Positions 3,481 to 42,224 of a stretch of 64,000 nucleotides of DNA are shown in pieces (the first letter of the stretch is position 1; the number at the start of each line of letters is the position of its first letter). The notes beneath the pieces are model-generated. The model searched no databases. It was not told where the DNA came from and worked only from the letters and a program-made list of their open reading frames with translations. The stretch comes from a virus (taxonomy: Duplodnaviria > Caudoviricetes), in IMG/VR virus record IMGVR_UViG_3300025401_000648; one strand, 5' to 3'. The position numbers and the translations under genes are program-made.

Positions 3481-4527
3481 TTATTTGTGTTGGCTTACAA
3501 TTTCAGGCTTAATTATGGCCTGTATGCCGTAAGCATCGTTAGTCCATACAACTAGGTTTTTCAGGGCTGTTATAGTCAACATACTGTCTAATCTCTTTTG
3601 TGCTTGTCGAACTTCGTCGCCCACTAACCAAGGATATGCTCCAACTCTGCTGGTAATAATTTGTTGACTTTCTGGATCAGCAATCATCTTTCGGGCCGCG
3701 GCAATCAATCTATCCTTGTTGGGGTTATTTTTATTGACCCAAATAACTTTTTGTAATACGTCCCTATAGCTTTTGACCAATAGCCAAGCATCGTAAAACT
3801 CGCCACTAGGATCTTTGCCCCATTTGGCCTTATATGCTTCGTTAAATGTACTTTGGCCCTTGGGAAAGTTTGTATCTGAAATTAACTTGCCTGTCTTAAT
3901 GTCCATGAGTCCTGCTGAGAACCATGTTTGATTAAATGCCAATGGTTCAATTTGTTGTTTGTAGAGAAAGGGATTTTCTCTAGTAACATTTAGCTCGCCT
4001 CTGATAAATCCCAGTGCTGTTTCAGAATTTTTCATACCCCGAACATAGATAACATGTTTACGAAAACAATCCAAATAGTCTGCCATCTTGGGCAACGGTC
4101 CACAAACCATCATGGTTATGGCCATGGCATCAGGATTCATACCAGACCCTGCGGCAAACTTGATGATGTTTTTGTAGGGGTCCTGTGTTTTATTATAGCT
4201 CACAATGATAGTTTGATTTTGTGCTAGGATAGGTTCATAGTCGTTAAAATTAAACTTAACATCTTCTAGTAGGTATGCTTCTGCTTGCCCGCCGTTGCTG
4301 TACCACATATAGGAGTCATCATAACGATATTTTTCTGCCCATTTGTTGCCGGCAGGAATATCTCGAGCGCCCTGTATAATTTCTGATCGAATAGGCTCGC
4401 CCAAGGCCTTGGCCAGTTCTGGAATAACCACAGTGGGCCACCCGGTGGCGCTGGGTACTACCACAGTCATATCTGCCAGTGCCAAATTACAGGCACAGAA
4501 TAAAATAATTAGTAAAAGTTTCTTCAT
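3481..4527 (-). CDS. tctC: Periplasmic substrate-binding protein, TctC/Bug-like
   Basis: Signal peptide MKKLLLIILFCACNLALA; TVVVP..G, I.GA..IPAGN, GELNVTRE; adjacent to TctA. Confidence 0.6.
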   Translation of the reverse strand: MKKLLLIILFCACNLALADMTVVVPSATGWPTVVIPELAKALGEPIRSEIIQGARDIPAGNKWAEKYRYDDSYMWYSNGGQAEAYLLEDVKFNFNDYEPILAQNQTIIVSYNKTQDPYKNIIKFAAGSGMNPDAMAITMMVCGPLPKMADYLDCFRKHVIYVRGMKNSETALGFIRGELNVTRENPFLYKQQIEPLAFNQTWFSAGLMDIKTGKLISDTNFPKGQSTFNEAYKAKWGKDPSGEFYDAWLLVKSYRDVLQKVIWVNKNNPNKDRLIAAARKMIADPESQQIITSRVGAYPWLVGDEVRQAQKRLDSMLTITALKNLVVWTNDAYGIQAIIKPEIVSQHK

Positions 4528-4533
4528 TTGTCC

Positions 4534-5991
4534 TCAATGATAGTTAATGGTTGTGCGGTTAAAAAATAACCCGTATACTAGTATTATTACACCAAAAGCA
4601 AGCAGACACAAACTAATTGGATGATGCAGGAGATCTTGAAATTTATACAGTGCCAAAAATTGCCCTGTGGTTAGTTCCAATCTATGACTAAGAGTAAAGC
4701 CTATGATAAAACTGATCCTACTGATTTTGAAATATTTAAAACATAGTCCCACTGCGGTCATTATGGACAATATGGCATAATCCTCCCAGCCGCCTGTATA
4801 GTCGACGCAGGACCAAACAATCAAGGCAATCAAAGGGGCCGCCCAATACTTAAAGGGCACACGGGTTATTGCTGTGGCATATTTTATGAACGCTATACTG
4901 ATAAAAAATGTTAGAACCAAACTTAGCATGAAACCAAAACTCAAGGCATCAAAAAATTTGTGATTTGACAGCAGTGTTTGGCTTCCTAGATCCAATCCCA
5001 CATAGGCCAGTAGGCTCATAACCACTGCTTCAAAAGGAGCCGCAGGTACACCAAACAATACCGTGGGCACATAGGCAGTGGCCTTTTGAGCCAGTGTGGC
5101 ACCCTCAGGACCAATTACACCTTTGACATTGCCTGATCCAAAAGGCATGGTTTCATTTTTGTTTGTGGCCACAGTTTGTCCATAGCTTAACCAATCCACA
5201 ATAGCCCCGCCTATACCAGGCAGTATACCAATTACCCCACCTATGATTCCACCTCTGACACTGATCCATCGGTTCGCCCACCAATCCCCAAATCCTTGTC
5301 GTATTTGTAGCCAATTATCTTGAGATGACTGTAGGTATGTGGTTTTAATTCTAACAGCGTTTATGATTTCAGGCAGTGCCATCAACCCTGCCATGACTGG
5401 AGCAAATTGTATACCATCGGCTAGATAAAACCAGCCACCAGTAAATCGTTCAGCGTTAGTCACAGGATCAGTACCAATCGATCCAGCAAATATACCCAAT
5501 ACCAGTCCCAGTATACCTCTTGCCCAATACTGACTGCTTAAGAAACAGATGCTGGTAACAGCCAAGATTAAAAATGCCCACTGTTCAGGTATACCAAAAC
5601 TCAACACCACATTGGCATAGTAGGGCAATAGTAAAATAGTTAACGTTCCCCATACTACGCCCTGACTCACTGAACTAAACACACTGGCACTCATGGCTCT
5701 GGCAGCTTCACCGCGTTGAGCCATGGGATATCCATCCACCATGGTGGCAGCACTACCCCCGCCTCCTGGTATGTTCATGACCACACTGGCAAACAGATCG
5801 CCCACACTGGCTGATACAACCACGGCAGTGGTAAACACAATAAGACTGTAGGGGTCGCCTCGGAAATAGGATATAAAACTATAGATAGTCAGCAAGGCTG
5901 TGCCGGCACCTGCCACAGGAATAATGCCAAACACAAATCCATATAGAGTGCCCAATAACAGCCAAGGTGTATATTGAATTACAAAGTCCAT
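4534..5991 (-). CDS. tctA: Tripartite tricarboxylate transporter large permease, TctA family
   Basis: 485-aa multi-TM protein; G.VFGIIPVAG, NIPG...SAAT.VDGYPMA.RGEA, GVIGILPGIGG, G...GVIGPE. Confidence 0.85.
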   Translation of the reverse strand: MDFVIQYTPWLLLGTLYGFVFGIIPVAGAGTALLTIYSFISYFRGDPYSLIVFTTAVVVSASVGDLFASVVMNIPGGGGSAATMVDGYPMAQRGEAARAMSASVFSSVSQGVVWGTLTILLLPYYANVVLSFGIPEQWAFLILAVTSICFLSSQYWARGILGLVLGIFAGSIGTDPVTNAERFTGGWFYLADGIQFAPVMAGLMALPEIINAVRIKTTYLQSSQDNWLQIRQGFGDWWANRWISVRGGIIGGVIGILPGIGGAIVDWLSYGQTVATNKNETMPFGSGNVKGVIGPEGATLAQKATAYVPTVLFGVPAAPFEAVVMSLLAYVGLDLGSQTLLSNHKFFDALSFGFMLSLVLTFFISIAFIKYATAITRVPFKYWAAPLIALIVWSCVDYTGGWEDYAILSIMTAVGLCFKYFKISRISFIIGFTLSHRLELTTGQFLALYKFQDLLHHPISLCLLAFGVIILVYGLFFNRTTINYH

Positions 5992-6527
5992 TATCTAAGA
6001 CGCCACTCAGCGTAGATTCGATTGGTTTGATCCCATCGCAATTCCACAATTTTAAAACCAAACACATCGGCAAGTCTAATATGTTCTTCAAAAGACCAAG
6101 GATAAAAATCAATTAGTTCAGTTTCCACAGCACCGTGGTCTTGGACTCCAGGATTACAACGCCAATATATTCTTCCCTTGGGTAACAGTAGATTTTTTAC
6201 TAGGCCAATTTGATTTTCTATGGTTTCCCTTGATCCAAAGTTTATGCTGCCAAGACAAAATGCCACATTGAACTGCTCTCGATTGACTCGAGCAAATTCC
6301 TCCAAGGTCAGTCTATGATCTGCCTCATCAAAAGCAGGATCTATGCCTATTAGATTAGGTATAAGTTTTTTGAAATGATTTCGACCACAACCAATGTCTA
6401 TAACTTGCTCATTGGCGTTAATACGACTGGCCAGTTGTAGCCCAGAATAAATGACCCTGTCTATGTTGCTGATAGGCAGTGTGCTCCAGACTTCTCTGAA
6501 ATAATGTGTTAGTTCCTGTTGATTCAT
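5991..6527 (-). CDS. Class I SAM-dependent methyltransferase
   Basis: Motif I VIDIGCG, LIGIDP, FCLGSINF. Confidence 0.75.
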   Translation of the reverse strand: MNQQELTHYFREVWSTLPISNIDRVIYSGLQLASRINANEQVIDIGCGRNHFKKLIPNLIGIDPAFDEADHRLTLEEFARVNREQFNVAFCLGSINFGSRETIENQIGLVKNLLLPKGRIYWRCNPGVQDHGAVETELIDFYPWSFEEHIRLADVFGFKIVELRWDQTNRIYAEWRLR

Positions 6528-7126
6528 GCAATCCGTACATGTGTGTCATTGGCAATGAAATCTAAAAATTCTTTTGGCGGGGTGATGCCAAGAATTCGGC
6601 ATAGTTCATGATTGTCCCTGATGTCATTACCTGTCCAATATTTTAACAGACAATAGTTCTGAAGAGCAATATGTTTGGACATCGTGTCTAAATCTCGATA
6701 GAATTGATAGTTGGGATAGGTGATATTGAATTCACCGCATTTTATCCACCAATCCAAACAATCGCGGTCATTACGGTAGACTAGAACTATGGGGCAGTCG
6801 GGCCAGTTAGCCCTCAAAAAATCTATATGATAAACAAAATGATGACAGCGTATGATGCGTATACCCTGTCCTGAGAAGGGGCGATCAAATTCTGCCTCGC
6901 ACTGTTCAGGCGTACGATCACTGAGTCGATCAAACCATTGCCCAAATTCCATGCCTGGATCAAAGTATGAACCACCATGAAACCCCGAAATAATTTCGGT
7001 ACCCGCATGACTGTAGGTGCGATCCTCAGTATAGTCGGTGCTGTCAATGTCCACACTGTCTTTGATCAGTCGTGGTATACTGCTCCACCTAGAGCCTGGG
7101 GCGCCGGTTACAAAGATATATTTCAT
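6524..7126 (-). CDS. P-loop / sulfotransferase-like protein
   Basis: N-terminal IFVTGAPGSRWS, later IIRCH and IVLVYR, similar to 5'-PSB/3'-PB layout; function not established. Confidence 0.45.
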   Translation of the reverse strand: MKYIFVTGAPGSRWSSIPRLIKDSVDIDSTDYTEDRTYSHAGTEIISGFHGGSYFDPGMEFGQWFDRLSDRTPEQCEAEFDRPFSGQGIRIIRCHHFVYHIDFLRANWPDCPIVLVYRNDRDCLDWWIKCGEFNITYPNYQFYRDLDTMSKHIALQNYCLLKYWTGNDIRDNHELCRILGITPPKEFLDFIANDTHVRIA

Positions 7127-7134
7127 ATCTTTAC

Positions 7135-8415
7135 TTATTGCGGGGTATCAGCTGTGGGTAAATTATCTGGAAGGGTTAGGCTACGATCTAATTCAGATCC
7201 ACGTTTATGCTGACTGAGAATTTCAGGAATATTGAACACACTGTAACTATATTGTTTGACCGTGGTCTTCATGGTTGTGTAAGTAGCACATTCAGTTTGA
7301 TAAAGAGTTTCAAAATTTGTCATGGCCCAACGTTGAAAATCTTCAGTGTTATAAAATGCTTGAAAATTATTGCCCAGAGTGTTTTTATTCATACGGACTA
7401 GATTATCCAAGTGCATTTGGTATTTGAATATGAATCTAAAGTAGCCGGCCAGTTGATATGCGTATTCAACTGTCATAGGAAACTGACTTAATTTTGGAGC
7501 CACAGCAGAATTATACAGTGCTTGACTCACTGCGGTATCACATTGATGTATTCTAGAATGATTACTTACAAAATAGTCTTCTGCGGATAGATATTTGTCC
7601 GAATCATTCACGGGTGATTTATAAAAGTCATCAATTCTCGAATCGCCCACACTGCCTTGATGACATTTAAAAAATCTCTTGCCCAAACTAAAATTGTGCT
7701 GTAGTACGGGAAACAGTTGATCATTACAGTCACCAGTGATCACAGTCCTATTGCTTACCGGTTGTTTTAAAAAGTCAAAATGTGAGGGCATTGCATCATT
7801 AATAAGATAATTGTTCAAAGGCAGACAATCAAAATTTTGTCGTACATGGTCGTACATCTCAGGAAATTCTCTTTGGCTGTTGGCATCAAAGGCCACACTG
7901 AATTTAATATTGTTTTTGACCAAGGCAGCAAGTATGGCTGTGGAGTCAATACCTCCGCTCCACATGACCACAGGATTCAAATTAGCATAGCTACCAGCAG
8001 TCTCATCCATGATCTCTGCGTAGGTCTTGGCAGTGTAAGTGTCAGACGGTATGGTAATTGGTGATCCGGATAAAAATATTCCTGAACGGTCAGTGAAATT
8101 ATCAGCAGGGTATCTACGCACAGGCAACAAGATCAAGGACCTATAGATTTGATTGAATTCTGAATCATTTTGAATACATTCAGCATCTAATGCCAAATCT
8201 GACATTTCTCTGTCGTCAGTGACGTCATATATGCTGACCAACTGTGTTCTTGGATCCTGAAGATCTCCCAATAATACCAAATCCACAGGATCAGTGAGTA
8301 CAGTGGCAGCAGGTACATAGGTCAAAATATTACCCATATAGACCTTGATTTCGTAGTCCTGGGCATTGGATAGTGACGCAACCTGCTGACGAAGAAGATC
8401 TAATGTATCTGACAT
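7135..8415 (-). CDS. PP-loop ATPase, asparagine-synthase C-terminal-like (no Ntn glutaminase domain)
   Basis: VMWSGGIDST PP-loop and VITGDCNDQLF motif; about 110-aa unrelated N-terminal domain. Confidence 0.65.
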   Translation of the reverse strand: MSDTLDLLRQQVASLSNAQDYEIKVYMGNILTYVPAATVLTDPVDLVLLGDLQDPRTQLVSIYDVTDDREMSDLALDAECIQNDSEFNQIYRSLILLPVRRYPADNFTDRSGIFLSGSPITIPSDTYTAKTYAEIMDETAGSYANLNPVVMWSGGIDSTAILAALVKNNIKFSVAFDANSQREFPEMYDHVRQNFDCLPLNNYLINDAMPSHFDFLKQPVSNRTVITGDCNDQLFPVLQHNFSLGKRFFKCHQGSVGDSRIDDFYKSPVNDSDKYLSAEDYFVSNHSRIHQCDTAVSQALYNSAVAPKLSQFPMTVEYAYQLAGYFRFIFKYQMHLDNLVRMNKNTLGNNFQAFYNTEDFQRWAMTNFETLYQTECATYTTMKTTVKQYSYSVFNIPEILSQHKRGSELDRSLTLPDNLPTADTPQ

Positions 8416-26021: not shown

Positions 26022-26046
26022 CGCTTATTTAACATAAGGTAAATAC

Positions 26047-36705: not shown

Positions 36706-36716
36706 CTAAATACTTG

Positions 36717-36971
36717 ATGCGAATAAATGAACTATTAGAAAAGAAACTGCCTGCCCCCACACAAAGTCAATGCGATGTGAGGGCAAGTAGACTTTCCAAT
36801 GTAAGGTATGCCCAATGTGTTGGTATGGGTATGCGAGCTCACGACACAGATCATACAGATGGTACTGGTCGCCAAGGCGTCAAAGGCAGTGGCCGCAGTC
36901 AAAACGGACGCAAGATTAAAAGCAAAAAGTATGGTGGCCCTAATACATATTGGCCCGGCAGTAGAAAATGA
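36717..36971 (+). CDS. Basic hypothetical protein
   Basis: MRINELLE start; TAAATA 4 nt upstream. Confidence 0.65.
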   Translation: MRINELLEKKLPAPTQSQCDVRASRLSNVRYAQCVGMGMRAHDTDHTDGTGRQGVKGSGRSQNGRKIKSKKYGGPNTYWPGSRK

Positions 36972-37291
36972 TTAGCATCACAGAAGCAGCCAAAGAAAAA
37001 ATCAACGACATATTATACCAAGAAAAGAACCCCAATGCGGCATTGAGAACATTTGTTCAAGGTGGCGGTTGTAGCGGATTCCAATACGGTTTTACTCTAG
37101 AAGATGTACAAAATGAAGATGATTTTGTGTTGGATACCGGAGTGTTCAAAGTACTTGTTGATGCCATGAGCATGATGTATATGGAAGGCGCTGTAATTGA
37201 TTACAAGGAGGATTTAATGTCTAGCCAATTTGTAATCAATAATCCCAATGCTATTAGCCAATGTGGATGCGGTAGTAGTTTTTCAGTATAA
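36968..37291 (+). CDS. erpA: A-type Fe-S cluster carrier, ErpA/IscA (HesB family)
   Basis: GGGCSGFQYGF, VDAMS, NPNA..QCGCGSSF. Confidence 0.92.
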   Translation: MISITEAAKEKINDILYQEKNPNAALRTFVQGGGCSGFQYGFTLEDVQNEDDFVLDTGVFKVLVDAMSMMYMEGAVIDYKEDLMSSQFVINNPNAISQCGCGSSFSV

Positions 37292-37302
37292 AGGATAATA
37301 CG

Positions 37303-38088
37303 ATGAAATTTGATATGATGGACATAGAAAAAATGGCTGAGGAAAATGACTCGGTCAACGAGCAAGTTACAGCATTTGTCAATAAAATAGAAGCTGATAA
37401 CGAAGTACTATTTGATGTATCAGAAAGACAAGTCAAAAACTTCTACATGAATCATGGAAACAAGGATTTGGTAAAACACTTTACTAGTCGCATGGTCAAT
37501 GAGCGTATGAACATGACTGAGTTAGCCAAACAGATTGCCAATGCTGATGCTGGCATGGATCCAAAAGAATTACAGTTGCTGGCTAAGCAGGCCTTGGATG
37601 AGGCTAATCATTTCCGTATGGTCAAAGATGTAGTTGAACATTTGAATGGCGGCCCAATTGATGTTAAAGAATTCGTTGAATGGGATCAGGCCAATAATGT
37701 CAGCTCAAAAGGTGCCAAACTTATTGCCAAATATGATTGCGATAATGATGAAATGGCCATGGCACTTTATCAATTCATCTGTGAAGGTCGTGCCGCACGT
37801 AACTGGTTCATGATGTCCACATGTGTTACCGATCCATTCATTGCCAATACCTATGCTAGAATCGCCCGTGATGAAAAATTCCATTCAAAGATTGGACGTC
37901 GCAAACTAATGCAACTTTGTGATACTCCAGAAAAACAAGCACGTGCCTTGAAGATTGCCAATCAAATGCGAATTGATCTATATGAAATCAACTGTAGCGG
38001 ATCTGGAGAGATGCCAGGCACTCGTGAGCTAATTGAACAGGCCTACGGCAAGGCAGAAGAGTTTGAAAATAGCAATCAGCCAGCGTGA
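37303..38088 (+). CDS. Ferritin-like diiron protein
   Basis: E(R)..., DEANH, EG, DEKFH: duplicated ExxH ligands. Confidence 0.75.
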   Translation: MKFDMMDIEKMAEENDSVNEQVTAFVNKIEADNEVLFDVSERQVKNFYMNHGNKDLVKHFTSRMVNERMNMTELAKQIANADAGMDPKELQLLAKQALDEANHFRMVKDVVEHLNGGPIDVKEFVEWDQANNVSSKGAKLIAKYDCDNDEMAMALYQFICEGRAARNWFMMSTCVTDPFIANTYARIARDEKFHSKIGRRKLMQLCDTPEKQARALKIANQMRIDLYEINCSGSGEMPGTRELIEQAYGKAEEFENSNQPA

Positions 38089-38611
38089 ATCTGTTATAGG
38101 CGGTAGTGCTCTTAAACACGACTGCCTAGCACAAGTTTGGTACAAGTTTTTAAGCAAACATCAAATCATTCCCATCCCTAATGTGGATGTAGATTATGTC
38201 TACGATTTTGACATGCTGATATTAAGTGGCGGGAATTTTAGTTTTCCCAGGTTCCATACAGAATTAAAATTATATAATCATGCCATGGATAACAATCTGC
38301 CCATATTGGGAGTTTGTCATGGCGCATTTTTTATTGCCGAGTTAACTGGTGCCCATTGCGAGGATATTGACGGCCATAGAGGCTTTGACCATGTTATTGA
38401 ACTAGAAGGTGAAGAAGTGGTTGTTAATAGTTGGCACGGTAGTACCATTAAGTCTTTGGGTCCAGACTATACTGCTATTGGTGTAGACAGTGAGAATAAC
38501 ATAGAAGCATTCAAACATAACTATAAACCTATTTGGGGTTTGTTATGGCATCCAGAAATCATGGTTAATCCTGTGTTGCCTAAAGAATTGGCCGAACTCC
38601 TAAAAATTTAA
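38063..38611 (+). CDS. Class I glutamine amidotransferase / peptidase C26
   Basis: LILSGG, LGVCHG nucleophile, WHPE; likely TTG start (KIAISQR). Confidence 0.85.
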   Translation: MKIAISQRESVIGGSALKHDCLAQVWYKFLSKHQIIPIPNVDVDYVYDFDMLILSGGNFSFPRFHTELKLYNHAMDNNLPILGVCHGAFFIAELTGAHCEDIDGHRGFDHVIELEGEEVVVNSWHGSTIKSLGPDYTAIGVDSENNIEAFKHNYKPIWGLLWHPEIMVNPVLPKELAELLKI

Positions 38612-38613
38612 TA

Positions 38614-40062
38614 ATGAACAATCACTGCCTAATACTGAGCTCCAAGCACATTTATGACCACGGTAGAAATGTTGGTGCTTATAGCATAGCTTCTCATTTA
38701 AGAAGGAATGGATGGGATTGTACGGTTGTGGATTATTTTCTACAATGGAAACAATTAGAACTTATTGAGTATTTAGAAAAACATATTACTAATGATACCA
38801 AGTGGGTTGGAATTTCTTACACATGGTTGTTCAATCAACGAAATACCAATGAGGCACTACCCACCATACATAATCTAATTCAGAACATAAAGAAAATTAA
38901 TCCTAATGTATTGTTGATAGCTGGTGGACAGAGTCCTTACGAACAAGACCTAGGTGTTGACTATTATATCTATGGGTATGCTGAACATGCCATACTTAAG
39001 ATATTGGATTATGAGTTTAATGATGGCGCCCCTGTATTTTACACAAAATTATTTGGAGGCAAATTAGTTGATGCCATGCATAACTATGCGTCTTACAATC
39101 TACCAACCTATACAATAGACTACGAAGATACTGATTTTATTTCTAAGGGAGATGTACTTAGCGTAGAGTTTAGTAGAGGTTGTAAATTTAAATGTGACTT
39201 TTGTACATTTCCTTTTATAGGTATCAAAGAGGATACATCAACTTCTGAAGAACTGCTGTATAGAGAGTTAATGACCAATTATCACACATGGGGTGTCAAA
39301 ACCTATATTGTCGCAGATGAAACAGTCAACGATAGAATTGAAAAATTAATCAAGATTAAGAATGTGGTAAACCGCTTGGACTTTAAACCAGATTTTACAG
39401 CTTTTGCTAGAGTAGACTTATTTAGAAGTCACCCCGAGGCAATTGAACTCATGGCAGAATGTCGTATTTGGGGACATTATTATGGGGTTGAAACATTTAA
39501 TCAAAAATCTGGTAAAGTCATTGGCAAGGGTCAAAATCCTGAATACATAAAAGAATCATTACTTAAAGTCAAAGATTATTTCCAAAAGAATTTGGGGCAA
39601 TATCGAGGTACAATAGGTATGATTTGTGGCTTACCGCACGAATCACTTGATAGCCTTCGTGAGTCATACAAGTGGCTAGTGGAAAACTGGAGTGATCAAA
39701 ACGTCATTTGGTGGCCACTACAAATTGTTGATAACGGTAATTTATCAGCAATGGGTAAAGATTTTGCTAGTTACGGATACAAAAAATTAGATGTAAACGC
39801 AAACACTCACAGATTATCAACCCTGGCATTGAACAATACAGAAATCTATTGGGAAAACGAATATACCAACATATTTGAAATTGATGAACTTATCCAAACA
39901 GAATTCACTCATAAATTCTATTTTGATAATTTTAAACTTTGGTTTTTGTTGCCTTACGCAGAATATGAAAAATGTAAAAACTATCGAGATGGCGATGTCT
40001 GGGCTAATCTAGTACATCAAGCCAAAATACAAGAATACATCAATAATAAAAAACATTCTTGA
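38614..40062 (+). CDS. Cobalamin-binding radical SAM enzyme
   Basis: B12-binding-like N-terminus (G.YSIASHL, VGIS, IAGG); RGCKFKCDFC CxxxCxxC; ADE, GVET, GLPHES. Confidence 0.85.
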   Translation: MNNHCLILSSKHIYDHGRNVGAYSIASHLRRNGWDCTVVDYFLQWKQLELIEYLEKHITNDTKWVGISYTWLFNQRNTNEALPTIHNLIQNIKKINPNVLLIAGGQSPYEQDLGVDYYIYGYAEHAILKILDYEFNDGAPVFYTKLFGGKLVDAMHNYASYNLPTYTIDYEDTDFISKGDVLSVEFSRGCKFKCDFCTFPFIGIKEDTSTSEELLYRELMTNYHTWGVKTYIVADETVNDRIEKLIKIKNVVNRLDFKPDFTAFARVDLFRSHPEAIELMAECRIWGHYYGVETFNQKSGKVIGKGQNPEYIKESLLKVKDYFQKNLGQYRGTIGMICGLPHESLDSLRESYKWLVENWSDQNVIWWPLQIVDNGNLSAMGKDFASYGYKKLDVNANTHRLSTLALNNTEIYWENEYTNIFEIDELIQTEFTHKFYFDNFKLWFLLPYAEYEKCKNYRDGDVWANLVHQAKIQEYINNKKHS

Positions 40063-40087
40063 CTTTTTTATCAAATGATCGTATAAT
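40059..40087 (+). promoter_or_regulatory. sigma70 promoter for DNA ligase
   Basis: TTGACT-17 nt-TATAAT; the upstream stop TGA lies within the -35 box. Confidence 0.75.
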
Positions 40088-40118
40088 ATTAGTATCACAG
40101 TTAGACACAGGACAAACT

Positions 40119-41432
40119 ATGTATCAAATCATTCAAGAGCTTGAAGCAGACAACAGCCGTCTTGCCAAAGAAGCAATTATTTTCCGTGAAGCACAAGCCA
40201 ACAACGTGGAGTTCTTTGAAGGACTTCGTTTGGCATTTGACCCCATGATCACATTTGGTGTTAAGAAAGTGCCCACACATGGTGGCGGTGAAGGACAGGG
40301 TTTGCCATGGGCGGCCTTCAAGGAACTGTGTTTGGGATTGAGCCGTAGAGACTTTACTGGACATGCGGCGCGTGATGCCATTGAGTTGGCCTTGAGCGCC
40401 AGCACTAAGGAACAATGGAATGGCTGGTACCGTCGTATTCTTATCAAAGACATGCGAGCAGGTTTTGGTGAAACCACTGTGAACAAGATGGTTGAAAAAG
40501 CACAACATCCTGAATTTGCTATTCCCTTATTTGAATGTATGTTGGCGCATGACGGTGCCAAGCATGAAAAGAAAATCACAGGCAAAAAACTACTGGAACC
40601 CAAGTTAGATGGTGTTCGAGTTATCACTGTGATCAACGCAGGTAATAAGACAGCCACAATGTACAGCCGTAACGGCAAGTTGTTGGAAAACTTCACGCAC
40701 ATTACCACAGCCATTGAAGCAAATATTGACCTATTTGAGCGTAGCATGGTGCTGGATGGTGAAATGGTATCCAGCTCATTCCAAGCACTAATGAAACAGG
40801 TACATCGTAAGAGTGATGTACAAAGCGAAGACGCACGTCTAATGCTGTTTGATATTCTACCAATGACTGAGTTCCAAGCAGGTGTCAGCACCATGGGACA
40901 ACGCCGCCGTAGCAATCTACTCAAGAGCATGAAAGATACGTTTGATAAGATTGGTAGTATTGACATTATTCCACAAACAGAAGTAGACTTGGACAGTTAT
41001 GTGGGTGAGCTGGAATTTAAACAGTATAACAAAGATGCTATTAAAGCTGGCTACGAAGGCATCATGATCAAGGACATTGATGCTCCCTATGAAGCCAAAC
41101 GCAGTGCCAGCTGGCTCAAGATGAAACCTTTTATTGAAGTTAGTTTGACAGTTACCGCAGTGGAAGAAGGCACAGGCAGAAATGAAGGCAAACTAGGCGC
41201 CTTTATCTGTGAAGGACAAGATGATGGACTTCAAATTCAAGTCAATGTTGGCTCAGGGTTCAGCGATGCCCAGCGTAAAGACTTTTGGGATAGCAAGGAC
41301 ACCCTGGTGGGACAGATTGTAGAAGTTAGAGCAGATGCGGCCACTAAGAACCAAGACAGCGAAGAAGTTTATTCTTTGCGTTTCCCACGCTTCCTCAGAT
41401 TCCGTGGATTCCTAGCAGGCGAAAAACTCTAA
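40119..41432 (+). CDS. ATP-dependent DNA ligase
   Basis: EPKLDGVR, LDGEM, FDIL, EGIMIK, KMK, LRFPRF; start refined to ATG 40119 downstream of the promoter. Confidence 0.95.
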   Translation: MYQIIQELEADNSRLAKEAIIFREAQANNVEFFEGLRLAFDPMITFGVKKVPTHGGGEGQGLPWAAFKELCLGLSRRDFTGHAARDAIELALSASTKEQWNGWYRRILIKDMRAGFGETTVNKMVEKAQHPEFAIPLFECMLAHDGAKHEKKITGKKLLEPKLDGVRVITVINAGNKTATMYSRNGKLLENFTHITTAIEANIDLFERSMVLDGEMVSSSFQALMKQVHRKSDVQSEDARLMLFDILPMTEFQAGVSTMGQRRRSNLLKSMKDTFDKIGSIDIIPQTEVDLDSYVGELEFKQYNKDAIKAGYEGIMIKDIDAPYEAKRSASWLKMKPFIEVSLTVTAVEEGTGRNEGKLGAFICEGQDDGLQIQVNVGSGFSDAQRKDFWDSKDTLVGQIVEVRADAATKNQDSEEVYSLRFPRFLRFRGFLAGEKL

Positions 41433-41471: not shown

Positions 41472-41690
41472 GTGGCAAAGCAAGATAGTATCGAAATGAT
41501 GGGCGTGGTCGAGGAAACACTGCCTAATAGTATGTTTCGAGTTAGATTAGAAAATAATGCTCTAGTATTGGGGCATATCAGTGGCCGTATACGCCAAAAT
41601 AAAATCCAAATCCTACTTGGTGATCGGGTGCGTACAGAAATTAGTCCCTACGATTTAACCAAGGCAAGAATAGTTTTTAGAGAAAAATAA
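41472..41690 (+). CDS. infA: Translation initiation factor IF-1
   Basis: [25 protein letters not shown]...[29 protein letters not shown]. Confidence 0.95.
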
Positions 41691-41712
41691 AAAAGCCCCA
41701 TTAGGGGCTTTT
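41691..41712. terminator. Bidirectional rho-independent terminator
   Basis: AAAAGCCCC-ATTA-GGGGCTTTT between convergent infA and HNH genes. Confidence 0.88.
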
Positions 41713-42224
41713 TATTCTAAGTAACCTTCCCAATTAGAGTAAGGTAAATCCCATCTTAATCTTTTACGCTTTTCAGCCAATTGGAAGTAAGTGGGCTTGT
41801 AGGGCTTGATCTTGGGAACAATTTTCTTATTGTTACCCTTGGTTGAGTTACAGGTAGAACAAGCACATACACAATTTTCAAAAGTGGTCTTACCACCGTG
41901 ACTAACTGGTAGCACATGATCCAATGTAGCAGTCTTGCGGGCAACATCATCTCCGCAGTATTGACATACATAGCTGTCCCGTAGGAAAACATTGTGCTTG
42001 CTGAAACGCACATTGGTTTTCTTCTTTTGGTAATCTTTTAGGATCATAACTGATGGAACACGGGTGCTCCAACGTTCACTTCTAACGACCCAATCTTCAT
42101 GCCATTCCAGAACAGTGGCTTTATCGCTGACAAGATAGCGAATAGATTCTTCCCAAGAGATCACACTTAGGGGAAGTAGACTAACTGGGCTAGCATCCGC
42201 ATTTAAAATTAAACAAGCTGACAA
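41712..42224 (-). CDS. HNH endonuclease
   Basis: CQYCG, TLDHVLP..GG, CVCAC..CN..KG; start refined to TTG 42224 after GAGG. Confidence 0.88.
   Translation of the reverse strand: MSACLILNADASPVSLLPLSVISWEESIRYLVSDKATVLEWHEDWVVRSERWSTRVPSVMILKDYQKKKTNVRFSKHNVFLRDSYVCQYCGDDVARKTATLDHVLPVSHGGKTTFENCVCACSTCNSTKGNNKKIVPKIKPYKPTYFQLAEKRKRLRWDLPYSNWEGYLE

Follow-up and report, generated by a model that had tools for sequence, protein, structure and literature searches.

A probable mosaic of backbone and mobile cargo genes beside ErpA in an uncultured freshwater jumbo phage

Viruses are known to carry parts of the iron-sulfur (Fe-S) cluster machinery. A-type carriers and IscU have been published as viral auxiliary genes (Nishimura et al. 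2017, PMC5332604; see also PMC13760526), 12 radical S-adenosylmethionine (SAM) genes occur in one carrier-encoding T4-like marine viral genome (PMC5332604), and viral carriers have been proposed by the same authors to serve virus-encoded Fe-S proteins (PMC5332604). Here we analyzed a string of five genes at 36.7 to 40.1 kb of a 64-kb stretch of DNA, called the window below, from an uncultured freshwater jumbo phage (IMG/VR record IMGVR_UViG_3300025401_000648). In this string the carrier ErpA is packed together with a ferritin-like diiron protein, a class I glutamine amidotransferase, and a B12-binding radical SAM enzyme, each of which resembles described proteins. ErpA has the same three cysteines as Escherichia coli ErpA and the viral A-type carriers (PMC5332604) and scores above the ErpA equivalog cut-off. 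PaaA, aldehyde-deformylating oxygenase, R2-like oxidases, and CADD/UndA/BesC resemble the diiron protein in their helical bundle and their E, ExxH, E, ExxH pattern. Cj1417, PuuD/Lin1909, and glutaminase subunits (archaeal GMP synthase subunit A, PabA) share the fold, the Cys-His-Glu triad, and the length of about 180 amino acids (aa) of the amidotransferase, and TokK, CysS, PhpK, BchE, and HpnR have the same N-terminal B12-binding domain and a radical SAM core with CxxxCxxC.

A preliminary description of this locus had read the string as one compact pathway that supplies its own cluster carrier. Its account of the genes was accurate: the open reading frame (ORF) calls give five co-directional genes on the plus strand with spacings of -4, 11, -26, and 2 nucleotides (nt), and profile scores, motifs, and a structural model agree with all four of the family assignments it made.

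36714/36717-36971, plus strand: orf85, a small basic backbone protein with a likely start at ATG 36717
36968-37291, plus strand: ErpA, an A-type Fe-S carrier of 107 aa (NF010147, PF01521, phrog_17776)
37303-38088, plus strand: ferritin-like diiron carboxylate protein of a virus-dominated family (ligand set, AF2 model)
38063-38611, plus strand: class I glutamine amidotransferase/peptidase C26, with a 26-nt overlap with the diiron gene (PF00117, PF07722)
38614-40062, plus strand: B12-binding radical SAM protein of a virus-specific family (PF02310 and PF04055)

The pathway reading fared differently. We conclude, with a probability of about 0.72, that the stretch is a mosaic of a backbone ErpA and two unrelated mobile cargo modules, not a pathway operon. 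On this account orf85 and ErpA would belong to the backbone of a freshwater jumbo phage lineage, and module A (the diiron protein and the amidotransferase) and module B (the radical SAM enzyme) would fill a slot before an early-type promoter of the DNA ligase gene. The first interpretation of the locus is thus partly supported.

This conclusion rests first on a comparison of 186 related viral loci, which were retrieved with the radical SAM protein (26 loci), the diiron protein (80), and ErpA (80) as queries and in which neighbors were identified by tblastn. The full set of four genes was adjacent in none of the 186 fetched loci. Neither ErpA nor the diiron protein nor the amidotransferase lay within 8 kb of the radical SAM gene in any of the 26 radical SAM loci, and the large radical SAM contigs (124 to 238 kb) carried no diiron gene anywhere (0/5). 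ErpA loci were equally separate, with a diiron protein or amidotransferase in 0 of 80 and any B12 radical SAM gene in 4 of 80. What the comparison did preserve was the pairing within module A. The amidotransferase was present in 74 of the 80 diiron loci, and in 59 of the 65 loci where both ORFs were called it was the immediate neighbor of the diiron gene (40 co-directional, 18 divergent, 1 reversed; median gap, 12 nt). This pair is the only conserved unit of the four genes, a two-gene unit of aquatic phages, so that the neighborhood analysis of the radical SAM and ferritin-like proteins suggested in the preliminary description refutes co-conservation of the full set and keeps the pair alone. 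Searches of cultured phages (blastn, tblastn) returned no match to the region, the radical SAM protein, or the diiron protein.

The second line of evidence comes from the backbone itself. Six related loci (L107, L110, L119, L172, L174, and L185) share with the window the order endolysin, 110-aa membrane protein, orf85, ErpA, DNA ligase, IF-1. Family searches with orf85 gave no match, and it is 56 to 73% conserved in L001, L110, L119, L172, L174, and L185, where it consistently follows the endolysin and the membrane protein; homology to these relatives starts at 36717, and the gene overlaps that of ErpA by 4 nt (ATGA). In L107, L110, and L174 the ligase follows ErpA within about 80 to 450 nt, with no gene between them. 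In L107, a TTGACA-17-TATAAT element starts 4 nt past the end of ErpA, with a short leader between it and the ligase ATG (L107:6326-6390); positions 40059 to 40118 of the window have the same promoter-and-leader plan.

37292-40058, plus strand: cargo insertion of 2.77 kb, running from the stop codon of ErpA to the promoter of the ligase
40059-40087, plus strand: sigma-70-type promoter TTGACT-17-TATAAT of the ligase gene (11/12 match), the right edge of the cargo
40119-41432, plus strand: ATP-dependent DNA ligase, a backbone gene outside the cluster (PF01068, PF14743, phrog_114)

Because backbone relatives run directly from ErpA through the promoter to the ligase, we interpret 37292-40058 as an insertion. 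The gene string does not continue past 40062, as the ligase gene, which comes next, carries a promoter of its own, and since this promoter sits inside the called 5' end of the ligase gene, as the L107 plan would have it, the called end (from 40059) is likely too long and we revised the start to ATG 40119. Lake-metagenome contigs of relatives also join ErpA (37128/37219) to the ligase (40236-40347) at a depth of 40 to 47; this junction is supporting evidence only, because the contigs are relatives placed at 85% likeness. The ErpA neighborhood is a cargo hotspot in this lineage. In L001 the radical SAM gene (55% identity) follows the membrane protein and precedes orf85, L119 carries a different B12 radical SAM gene (655 aa) between orf85 and ErpA, and L185 carries an IscU-like gene and a glycosyltransferase at the same place.

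These comparisons bear directly on the idea of one dedicated pathway, in which ErpA would load the radical SAM enzyme, and the diiron protein, the amidotransferase, and the radical SAM enzyme would act in turn on one substrate (a base, a tRNA, a virion protein, or a small molecule). The tight co-directional packing without an internal plus-strand terminator fits such a pathway, as do the need of radical SAM enzymes for 4Fe-4S clusters and the recurrence of metal-cofactor cargo beside ErpA in relatives. Yet no other locus among the 186 has the four genes adjacent, the three modules have separate conserved homes elsewhere, some backbone relatives lack any cargo, and the radical SAM contigs lack the diiron gene. 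A lack of co-conservation had been set beforehand as the outcome that would overturn the single-pathway proposal, and because the four genes are not co-conserved, we consider a single pathway very improbable.

Several observations weigh against the mosaic reading. The flanks that we compared span 6 to 8 kb, and most viral contigs are fragments. At the level of whole contigs, ErpA-like genes were present in four of five radical SAM contigs and four of five diiron contigs, and radical SAM relatives were present in four of five diiron contigs, which leaves room for a looser genome-wide link of the ErpA, radical SAM, and diiron genes. Metal-cofactor cargo recurs beside ErpA in the lineage (the window, L119, L185, and L125/L131/L134), which hints at something more than random insertion. 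Moreover, no plus-strand terminator was found between the genes of the string; these genes are probably cotranscribed in the phage, and their cooperation is conceivable. A look for public RNA runs covering the region turned up none. With respect to the contig counts, the phages concerned are kin and the counts are therefore not independent, so that co-occurrence on a contig shows no functional link. Given this co-occurrence, we therefore describe the ErpA, radical SAM, and diiron genes as a shared accessory repertoire of related jumbo phages, in which they lie tens of kilobases apart.

Having separated the modules, we characterized the proteins of module A. The diiron protein has the ligands E67, E100-x-x-H103, E161, and E191-x-x-H194, which are invariant in 22 sequences, and its AF2 model is a helical bundle (pLDDT, 91); the four-helix core together with the E, ExxH, E, ExxH set places it in the ferritin-like superfamily. 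Below that level it resembles no named family closely. Pfam gave only subthreshold matches (PaaA_PaaC, PF05138, 17.6 bits versus 28.5; DUF455, 18.6), and a PDB profile search with the family had no match even at an E value of 10. Foldseek searches with the model (PDB, Swiss-Prot models, AFDB clusters, BFVD) returned only generic, unnamed diiron/heme-oxygenase-like proteins (best E value, 5e-4). A wide structural search gave Z scores of 12.7 to 14.7 to CADD, TenA, ADO-like proteins, HrmI, UndA, BesC, and PaaAC, values that are spread over many unrelated diiron and TenA families and are the usual range for helical bundles. Two specific identities were rejected: a PaaA/PaaC phenylacetyl-CoA epoxidase (17.6 versus 28.5 for PF05138; 23.1 versus 280 for TIGR02156) and a ribonucleotide reductase R2 protein (no PF00268 match, Val at position +4 after H103, and weak matches to the R2 fold). 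The family is large: IMG/VR contains at least 223 relatives and the protein collection 322, none with an informative name. The Atlas clusters of the family (~850 members) are 95 to 100% viral.

The amidotransferase was easier to place at the family level. It scored 53.6 bits against PF00117 (threshold, 22.8) and 54.3 against PF07722 (20.5), and its Cys85-His163-Glu165 triad is invariant among relatives. We set its start at TTG 38063 because all 25 of the 25 relatives begin with the same MKI/MRI..SQR N terminus and a purine-rich Shine-Dalgarno sequence lies upstream of this codon. The best NCBIfam model for 26 of 26 family members was gamma-glutamyl-CDP-amidate hydrolase (NF045546; best E value, 2.3e-27, versus 1e-17 for GMP synthase glutaminase), to which the window protein scored 84.8 bits; the cut-off for equivalogs of Cj1417 is 250, which leaves the protein outside that group. 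Among solved structures its best relatives were the C26 protein Lin1909 (69 bits) and archaeal GuaA subunit A (64 bits). Whether the protein would act as a hydrolase or as an ammonia donor is a choice that sequence alone decides in neither direction. A complex prediction for the diiron protein and the amidotransferase scored 0.00 and gave no verdict, so it is evidence neither way. Our literature search found nothing on a phage diiron/C26 pair.

The surroundings of the pair offer some guidance. When we clustered the neighbors in the 80 diiron loci, the most frequent families were methyltransferase-like (63 loci), cupin-like with HxD...H (50), and sulfotransferase-like P-loop proteins with GxPGSxWS (48), followed by a 217-aa family (35), TctA (23), a signal-peptide binding protein (20) or TctC (18), and PhoH. 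Families of this cassette recur in 63 to 70 of the 80 diiron loci. In the closest diiron relatives (L027/L028, 88%) the pair sits inside a cassette with TctC, methyltransferase-like, and sulfotransferase-like genes, without ErpA or a radical SAM gene. A tblastn search with families from the 80 loci located part of this cassette in the window too, at 3481-8415, on the opposite strand and 30 kb from the pair. The cassette is split in this genome, its pair lying in the ErpA-ligase slot beside an unrelated radical SAM gene.

3481-4527, minus strand: signal-peptide binding protein (signal peptide predicted)
4534-5991, minus strand: TctA (Pfam TctA, 272.6 bits)
5991-6527, minus strand: methyltransferase-like protein (tblastn of cassette families)
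6524-7126, minus strand: sulfotransferase-like P-loop protein (tblastn of cassette families; motifs)
7135-8415, minus strand: PP-loop ATPase of 426 aa (motif SGGIDS; no family above threshold)

The diiron cassettes of eight further loci contain a relative of the PP-loop protein and a ninth has a truncated copy (9/80), and in L049 the gene lies between the two genes of the pair. In a PDB profile search the sulfotransferase-like family gave no hits and the PP-loop family gave only weak generic PP-loop matches, and six cassette families (c4, c13, c14, c19, c22, and c36) had no match in NCBIfam or Pfam scans. Nothing on a phage TTT transporter in myophages was found in the literature. Diiron homologues also occur on the chromosomes of Janthinobacterium, Massilia, and Tahibacter (L188, L189, L190), together with the sulfotransferase-like, methyltransferase-like, cupin, and 217-aa families; the amidotransferase is absent from all three. 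The Massilia copy is accompanied as well by a sulfatase, a LigT-like phosphoesterase, and a glutaminyl-cyclase/5'-nucleotidase fusion. A further cassette gene, seen at L069:10543-11397 and in 15 other diiron loci, encodes a 284-aa P-loop kinase (weak APS-kinase) fused to a HIGH-type nucleotidyltransferase (weak NMN-adenylyltransferase); the fusion may supply the sulfotransferase-like proteins with an activated PAPS-like donor.

How might the pair work? Every substrate named here we infer. The reading that we prefer, tentatively and at somewhat less than even odds, is that a diiron oxygenase or oxidase and a thiol amidohydrolase work on one small molecule, in which the amidohydrolase would cleave an amide of the glutamine or gamma-glutamyl type. 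The O2-activating diiron centre would hydroxylate or oxidize this molecule, and the pair would act with the importer (TctA and the binding protein) and the PP-loop, sulfotransferase-like, and methyltransferase-like genes at 3.5 to 8.4 kb. Alternatively, the amidotransferase could be a glutaminase subunit that supplies ammonia, which we regard as unlikely. A specific form of this alternative, in which the ammonia goes to the PP-loop enzyme, is disfavored: the PP-loop gene is found in only 9 of the 80 diiron loci, and it is the diiron gene that is the constant neighbor. Going beyond the preferred reading, the pair could represent a new glutamine- or gamma-glutamyl-dependent diiron system at the core of an import-and-tailor pathway (TTT importer, PP-loop, sulfotransferase-like, methyltransferase, and cupin proteins). 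Such a pathway would make an amidated, oxidized, or sulfated metabolite during infection, with aquatic jumbo phages and a few Oxalobacteraceae and Xanthomonadales as its users; this is a speculative proposal that we hold to be doubtful.

The NF045546 match and the cassette partners raise another explanation. The amidotransferase might be a hydrolase of the gamma-glutamyl-NDP-amidate type, and module A might take part in phosphoramidate or PAPS-like group transfer, much as in Campylobacter O-methyl phosphoramidate synthesis, with the sulfotransferase-like proteins as the transferases and the methyltransferase-like proteins for capping. That this model is the best one for every member of the family, that 16 loci have the P-loop kinase-nucleotidyltransferase fusion, and that the cassette partners seen most often are sulfotransferase-like and methyltransferase-like genes all argue in its direction. 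However, a score of 85 bits is far under the equivalog cut-off, no glutamine kinase homologue was seen, and the constant diiron partner would have no role in that pathway. In addition, the sulfotransferase-like assignment is by motifs only, given the empty PDB profile search, and the sulfatase in the bacterial clusters favors sulfate chemistry. Taken together, these points make a phosphoramidate pathway a remote prospect.

Module B consists of the radical SAM protein, which scored 58.8 bits against PF04055 (threshold, 29.5) and 41.8 against PF02310 (32.1), the domain pair of class B enzymes. Its C190-x3-C194-x2-C197 motif is invariant in the family, whose Atlas clusters are viral only (99, 65, and 71 members). 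All subfamily scores were below the respective cut-offs: 61.7 versus 600 for PhpK, 20.8 versus 481 for BchE, 27.6 versus 650 and 33.3 versus 578 for HpnR/HpnJ, and 49.5 versus 360 for the ladderane subfamily. We also considered a parallel with AcsF and BchE, which in chlorophyll synthesis are the aerobic diiron cyclase and the anaerobic B12 radical SAM cyclase, and rejected it on the BchE score (20.8 versus 481) and on the lack of co-conservation of the genes. By analogy with characterized enzymes, the chemistry is most likely methylation of an unactivated carbon. A literature search turned up nothing specific to phages on B12 radical SAM enzymes.

Elsewhere, members of this family sit in islands that also contain another copy of the gene together with SPASM-type and other radical SAM proteins and Asp/Asn-hydroxylase-like cupins, and in those other phages the module B enzyme would belong to such sets of radical SAM proteins and cupin hydroxylases. 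Seven of the islands (L003, L004, L007, L013, L014, L018, and L025) have two B12 radical SAM copies, several small cupins, and SPASM and other radical SAM proteins, among which one has an HMPTM-type zinc ribbon. The gene set of the islands resembles a peptide or protein modification pathway. A rival reading is a distributed tailoring network, in which the diiron protein, the amidotransferase, and the radical SAM enzyme, along with PP-loop, sulfotransferase-like, methyltransferase-like, and cupin enzymes encoded elsewhere in such genomes, would decorate one target class, for example Tyr/Gly-rich virion fibre proteins; the separately moving modules would then be exchangeable pieces of a single post-translational modification toolkit. 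Related cupin (HxD...H) families are shared by the diiron cassettes and the radical SAM islands, the combination of SPASM and B12 radical SAM enzymes with Asp/Asn-hydroxylase-like cupins is a typical sign of peptide or protein modification, and, as noted above, most diiron contigs (4/5) hold radical SAM relatives. The TctA permease and the signal-peptide binding protein point instead to an imported small molecule, and the Massilia, Janthinobacterium, and Tahibacter copies are surrounded by ordinary genes of metabolism and a sulfatase, with no phage structural genes, so we judge such a network improbable.

ErpA, the backbone gene of the string, was identified with confidence. It scored 143.8 bits against NF010147 (equivalog cut-off, 117) and 74.4 against PF01521 (Fe-S_biosyn; threshold, 26.3), and the cluster-ligand cysteines are all present (Cys35 in GGGCSG, Cys99 and Cys101 in QCGCG). 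We found 147 viral relatives. In the 80 viral ErpA loci the usual neighbors were Fe/Mn-SOD (45), UvdE (33), IscU (24), PTPS (17), and ribonucleotide reductase (16). Judging from its family, ErpA would most likely take Fe-S clusters from a host (or phage) scaffold and insert them into apo-proteins during infection, as a general service to Fe-S clients that would include phage radical SAM enzymes; cluster transfer, its direction, and the clients are all deduced from this kinship. The suggestion that the locus brings its own cluster carrier therefore stands in part, in that a phage carrier serving phage Fe-S enzymes is plausible and already published, and is not supported where it dedicates the carrier to one pathway. 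At L185:4543-5952 (minus strand), a 469-aa protein adjoining ErpA gave two separate NifU_N matches and is possibly an IscU into which another domain or an intein has been inserted.

The string is preceded by a motif that the preliminary description had noted and that is indeed present.

36707-36712, plus strand: TAAATA, a late-promoter-like motif 7 to 10 nt 5' of the orf85 start

TAAATA is enriched before genes, with 18 of the 32 copies in the window lying within 60 nt upstream of a start (copies are at 26040, 29349, 32672, 36707, 41439, 42615, 51899, 58711, and 59279, for example). The distances from motif to start form two classes, 25 to 33 nt (the usual one) and 7 to 14 nt. orf85 falls in the short class, which has no space for a normal leader. 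Because its spacing of 7 to 10 nt departs from the usual 25 to 33 nt, a role of the 36707 copy as promoter of the gene string is doubtful. Downstream, IF-1 and a convergent HNH endonuclease gene are separated by a strong hairpin at 41690-41713 that has 10 pairs with A and T runs on its flanks and resembles a bidirectional terminator.

The locus illustrates how misleading close packing of phage genes can be: unrelated cargo gathers in a slot that lies between ErpA and the ligase and is bounded by a promoter. Viral ErpA and phages rich in radical SAM genes were already known. The diiron/amidotransferase pair and the viral B12 radical SAM family are uncharacterized, and neither has a close relative that is solved or named. 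The link of the pair to a phage-encoded importer and sulfotransferase-like enzymes makes it a concrete target for expression and metabolomics, and the chromosomal copies in culturable Massilia, Janthinobacterium, and Tahibacter provide a tractable genetic entry point.

Set against the systems with which we began, each part of the locus differs in its own way. Compared to the published viral carriers (PMC5332604), ErpA here is a backbone gene by the lysis genes and the ligase, with no IscU or SOD in the 64-kb window. The diiron protein has two histidines and four carboxylates, whereas AurF and CADD have 3-His sites, and in contrast to R2 it lacks a tyrosine four residues past the first histidine. 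The amidotransferase is far below any equivalog cut-off when compared to Cj1417, PuuD, and PabA, and its partner is a diiron protein rather than a synthase or a capsule pathway. The radical SAM enzyme is distant from TokK (38 bits) and from the PhpK-family model (62 bits; cut-off, 600) and belongs to a viral-only family. Finally, unlike any of the known diiron oxygenases and heme-oxygenase-like enzymes, the diiron family described here is almost wholly viral and is constantly paired with an amidotransferase.

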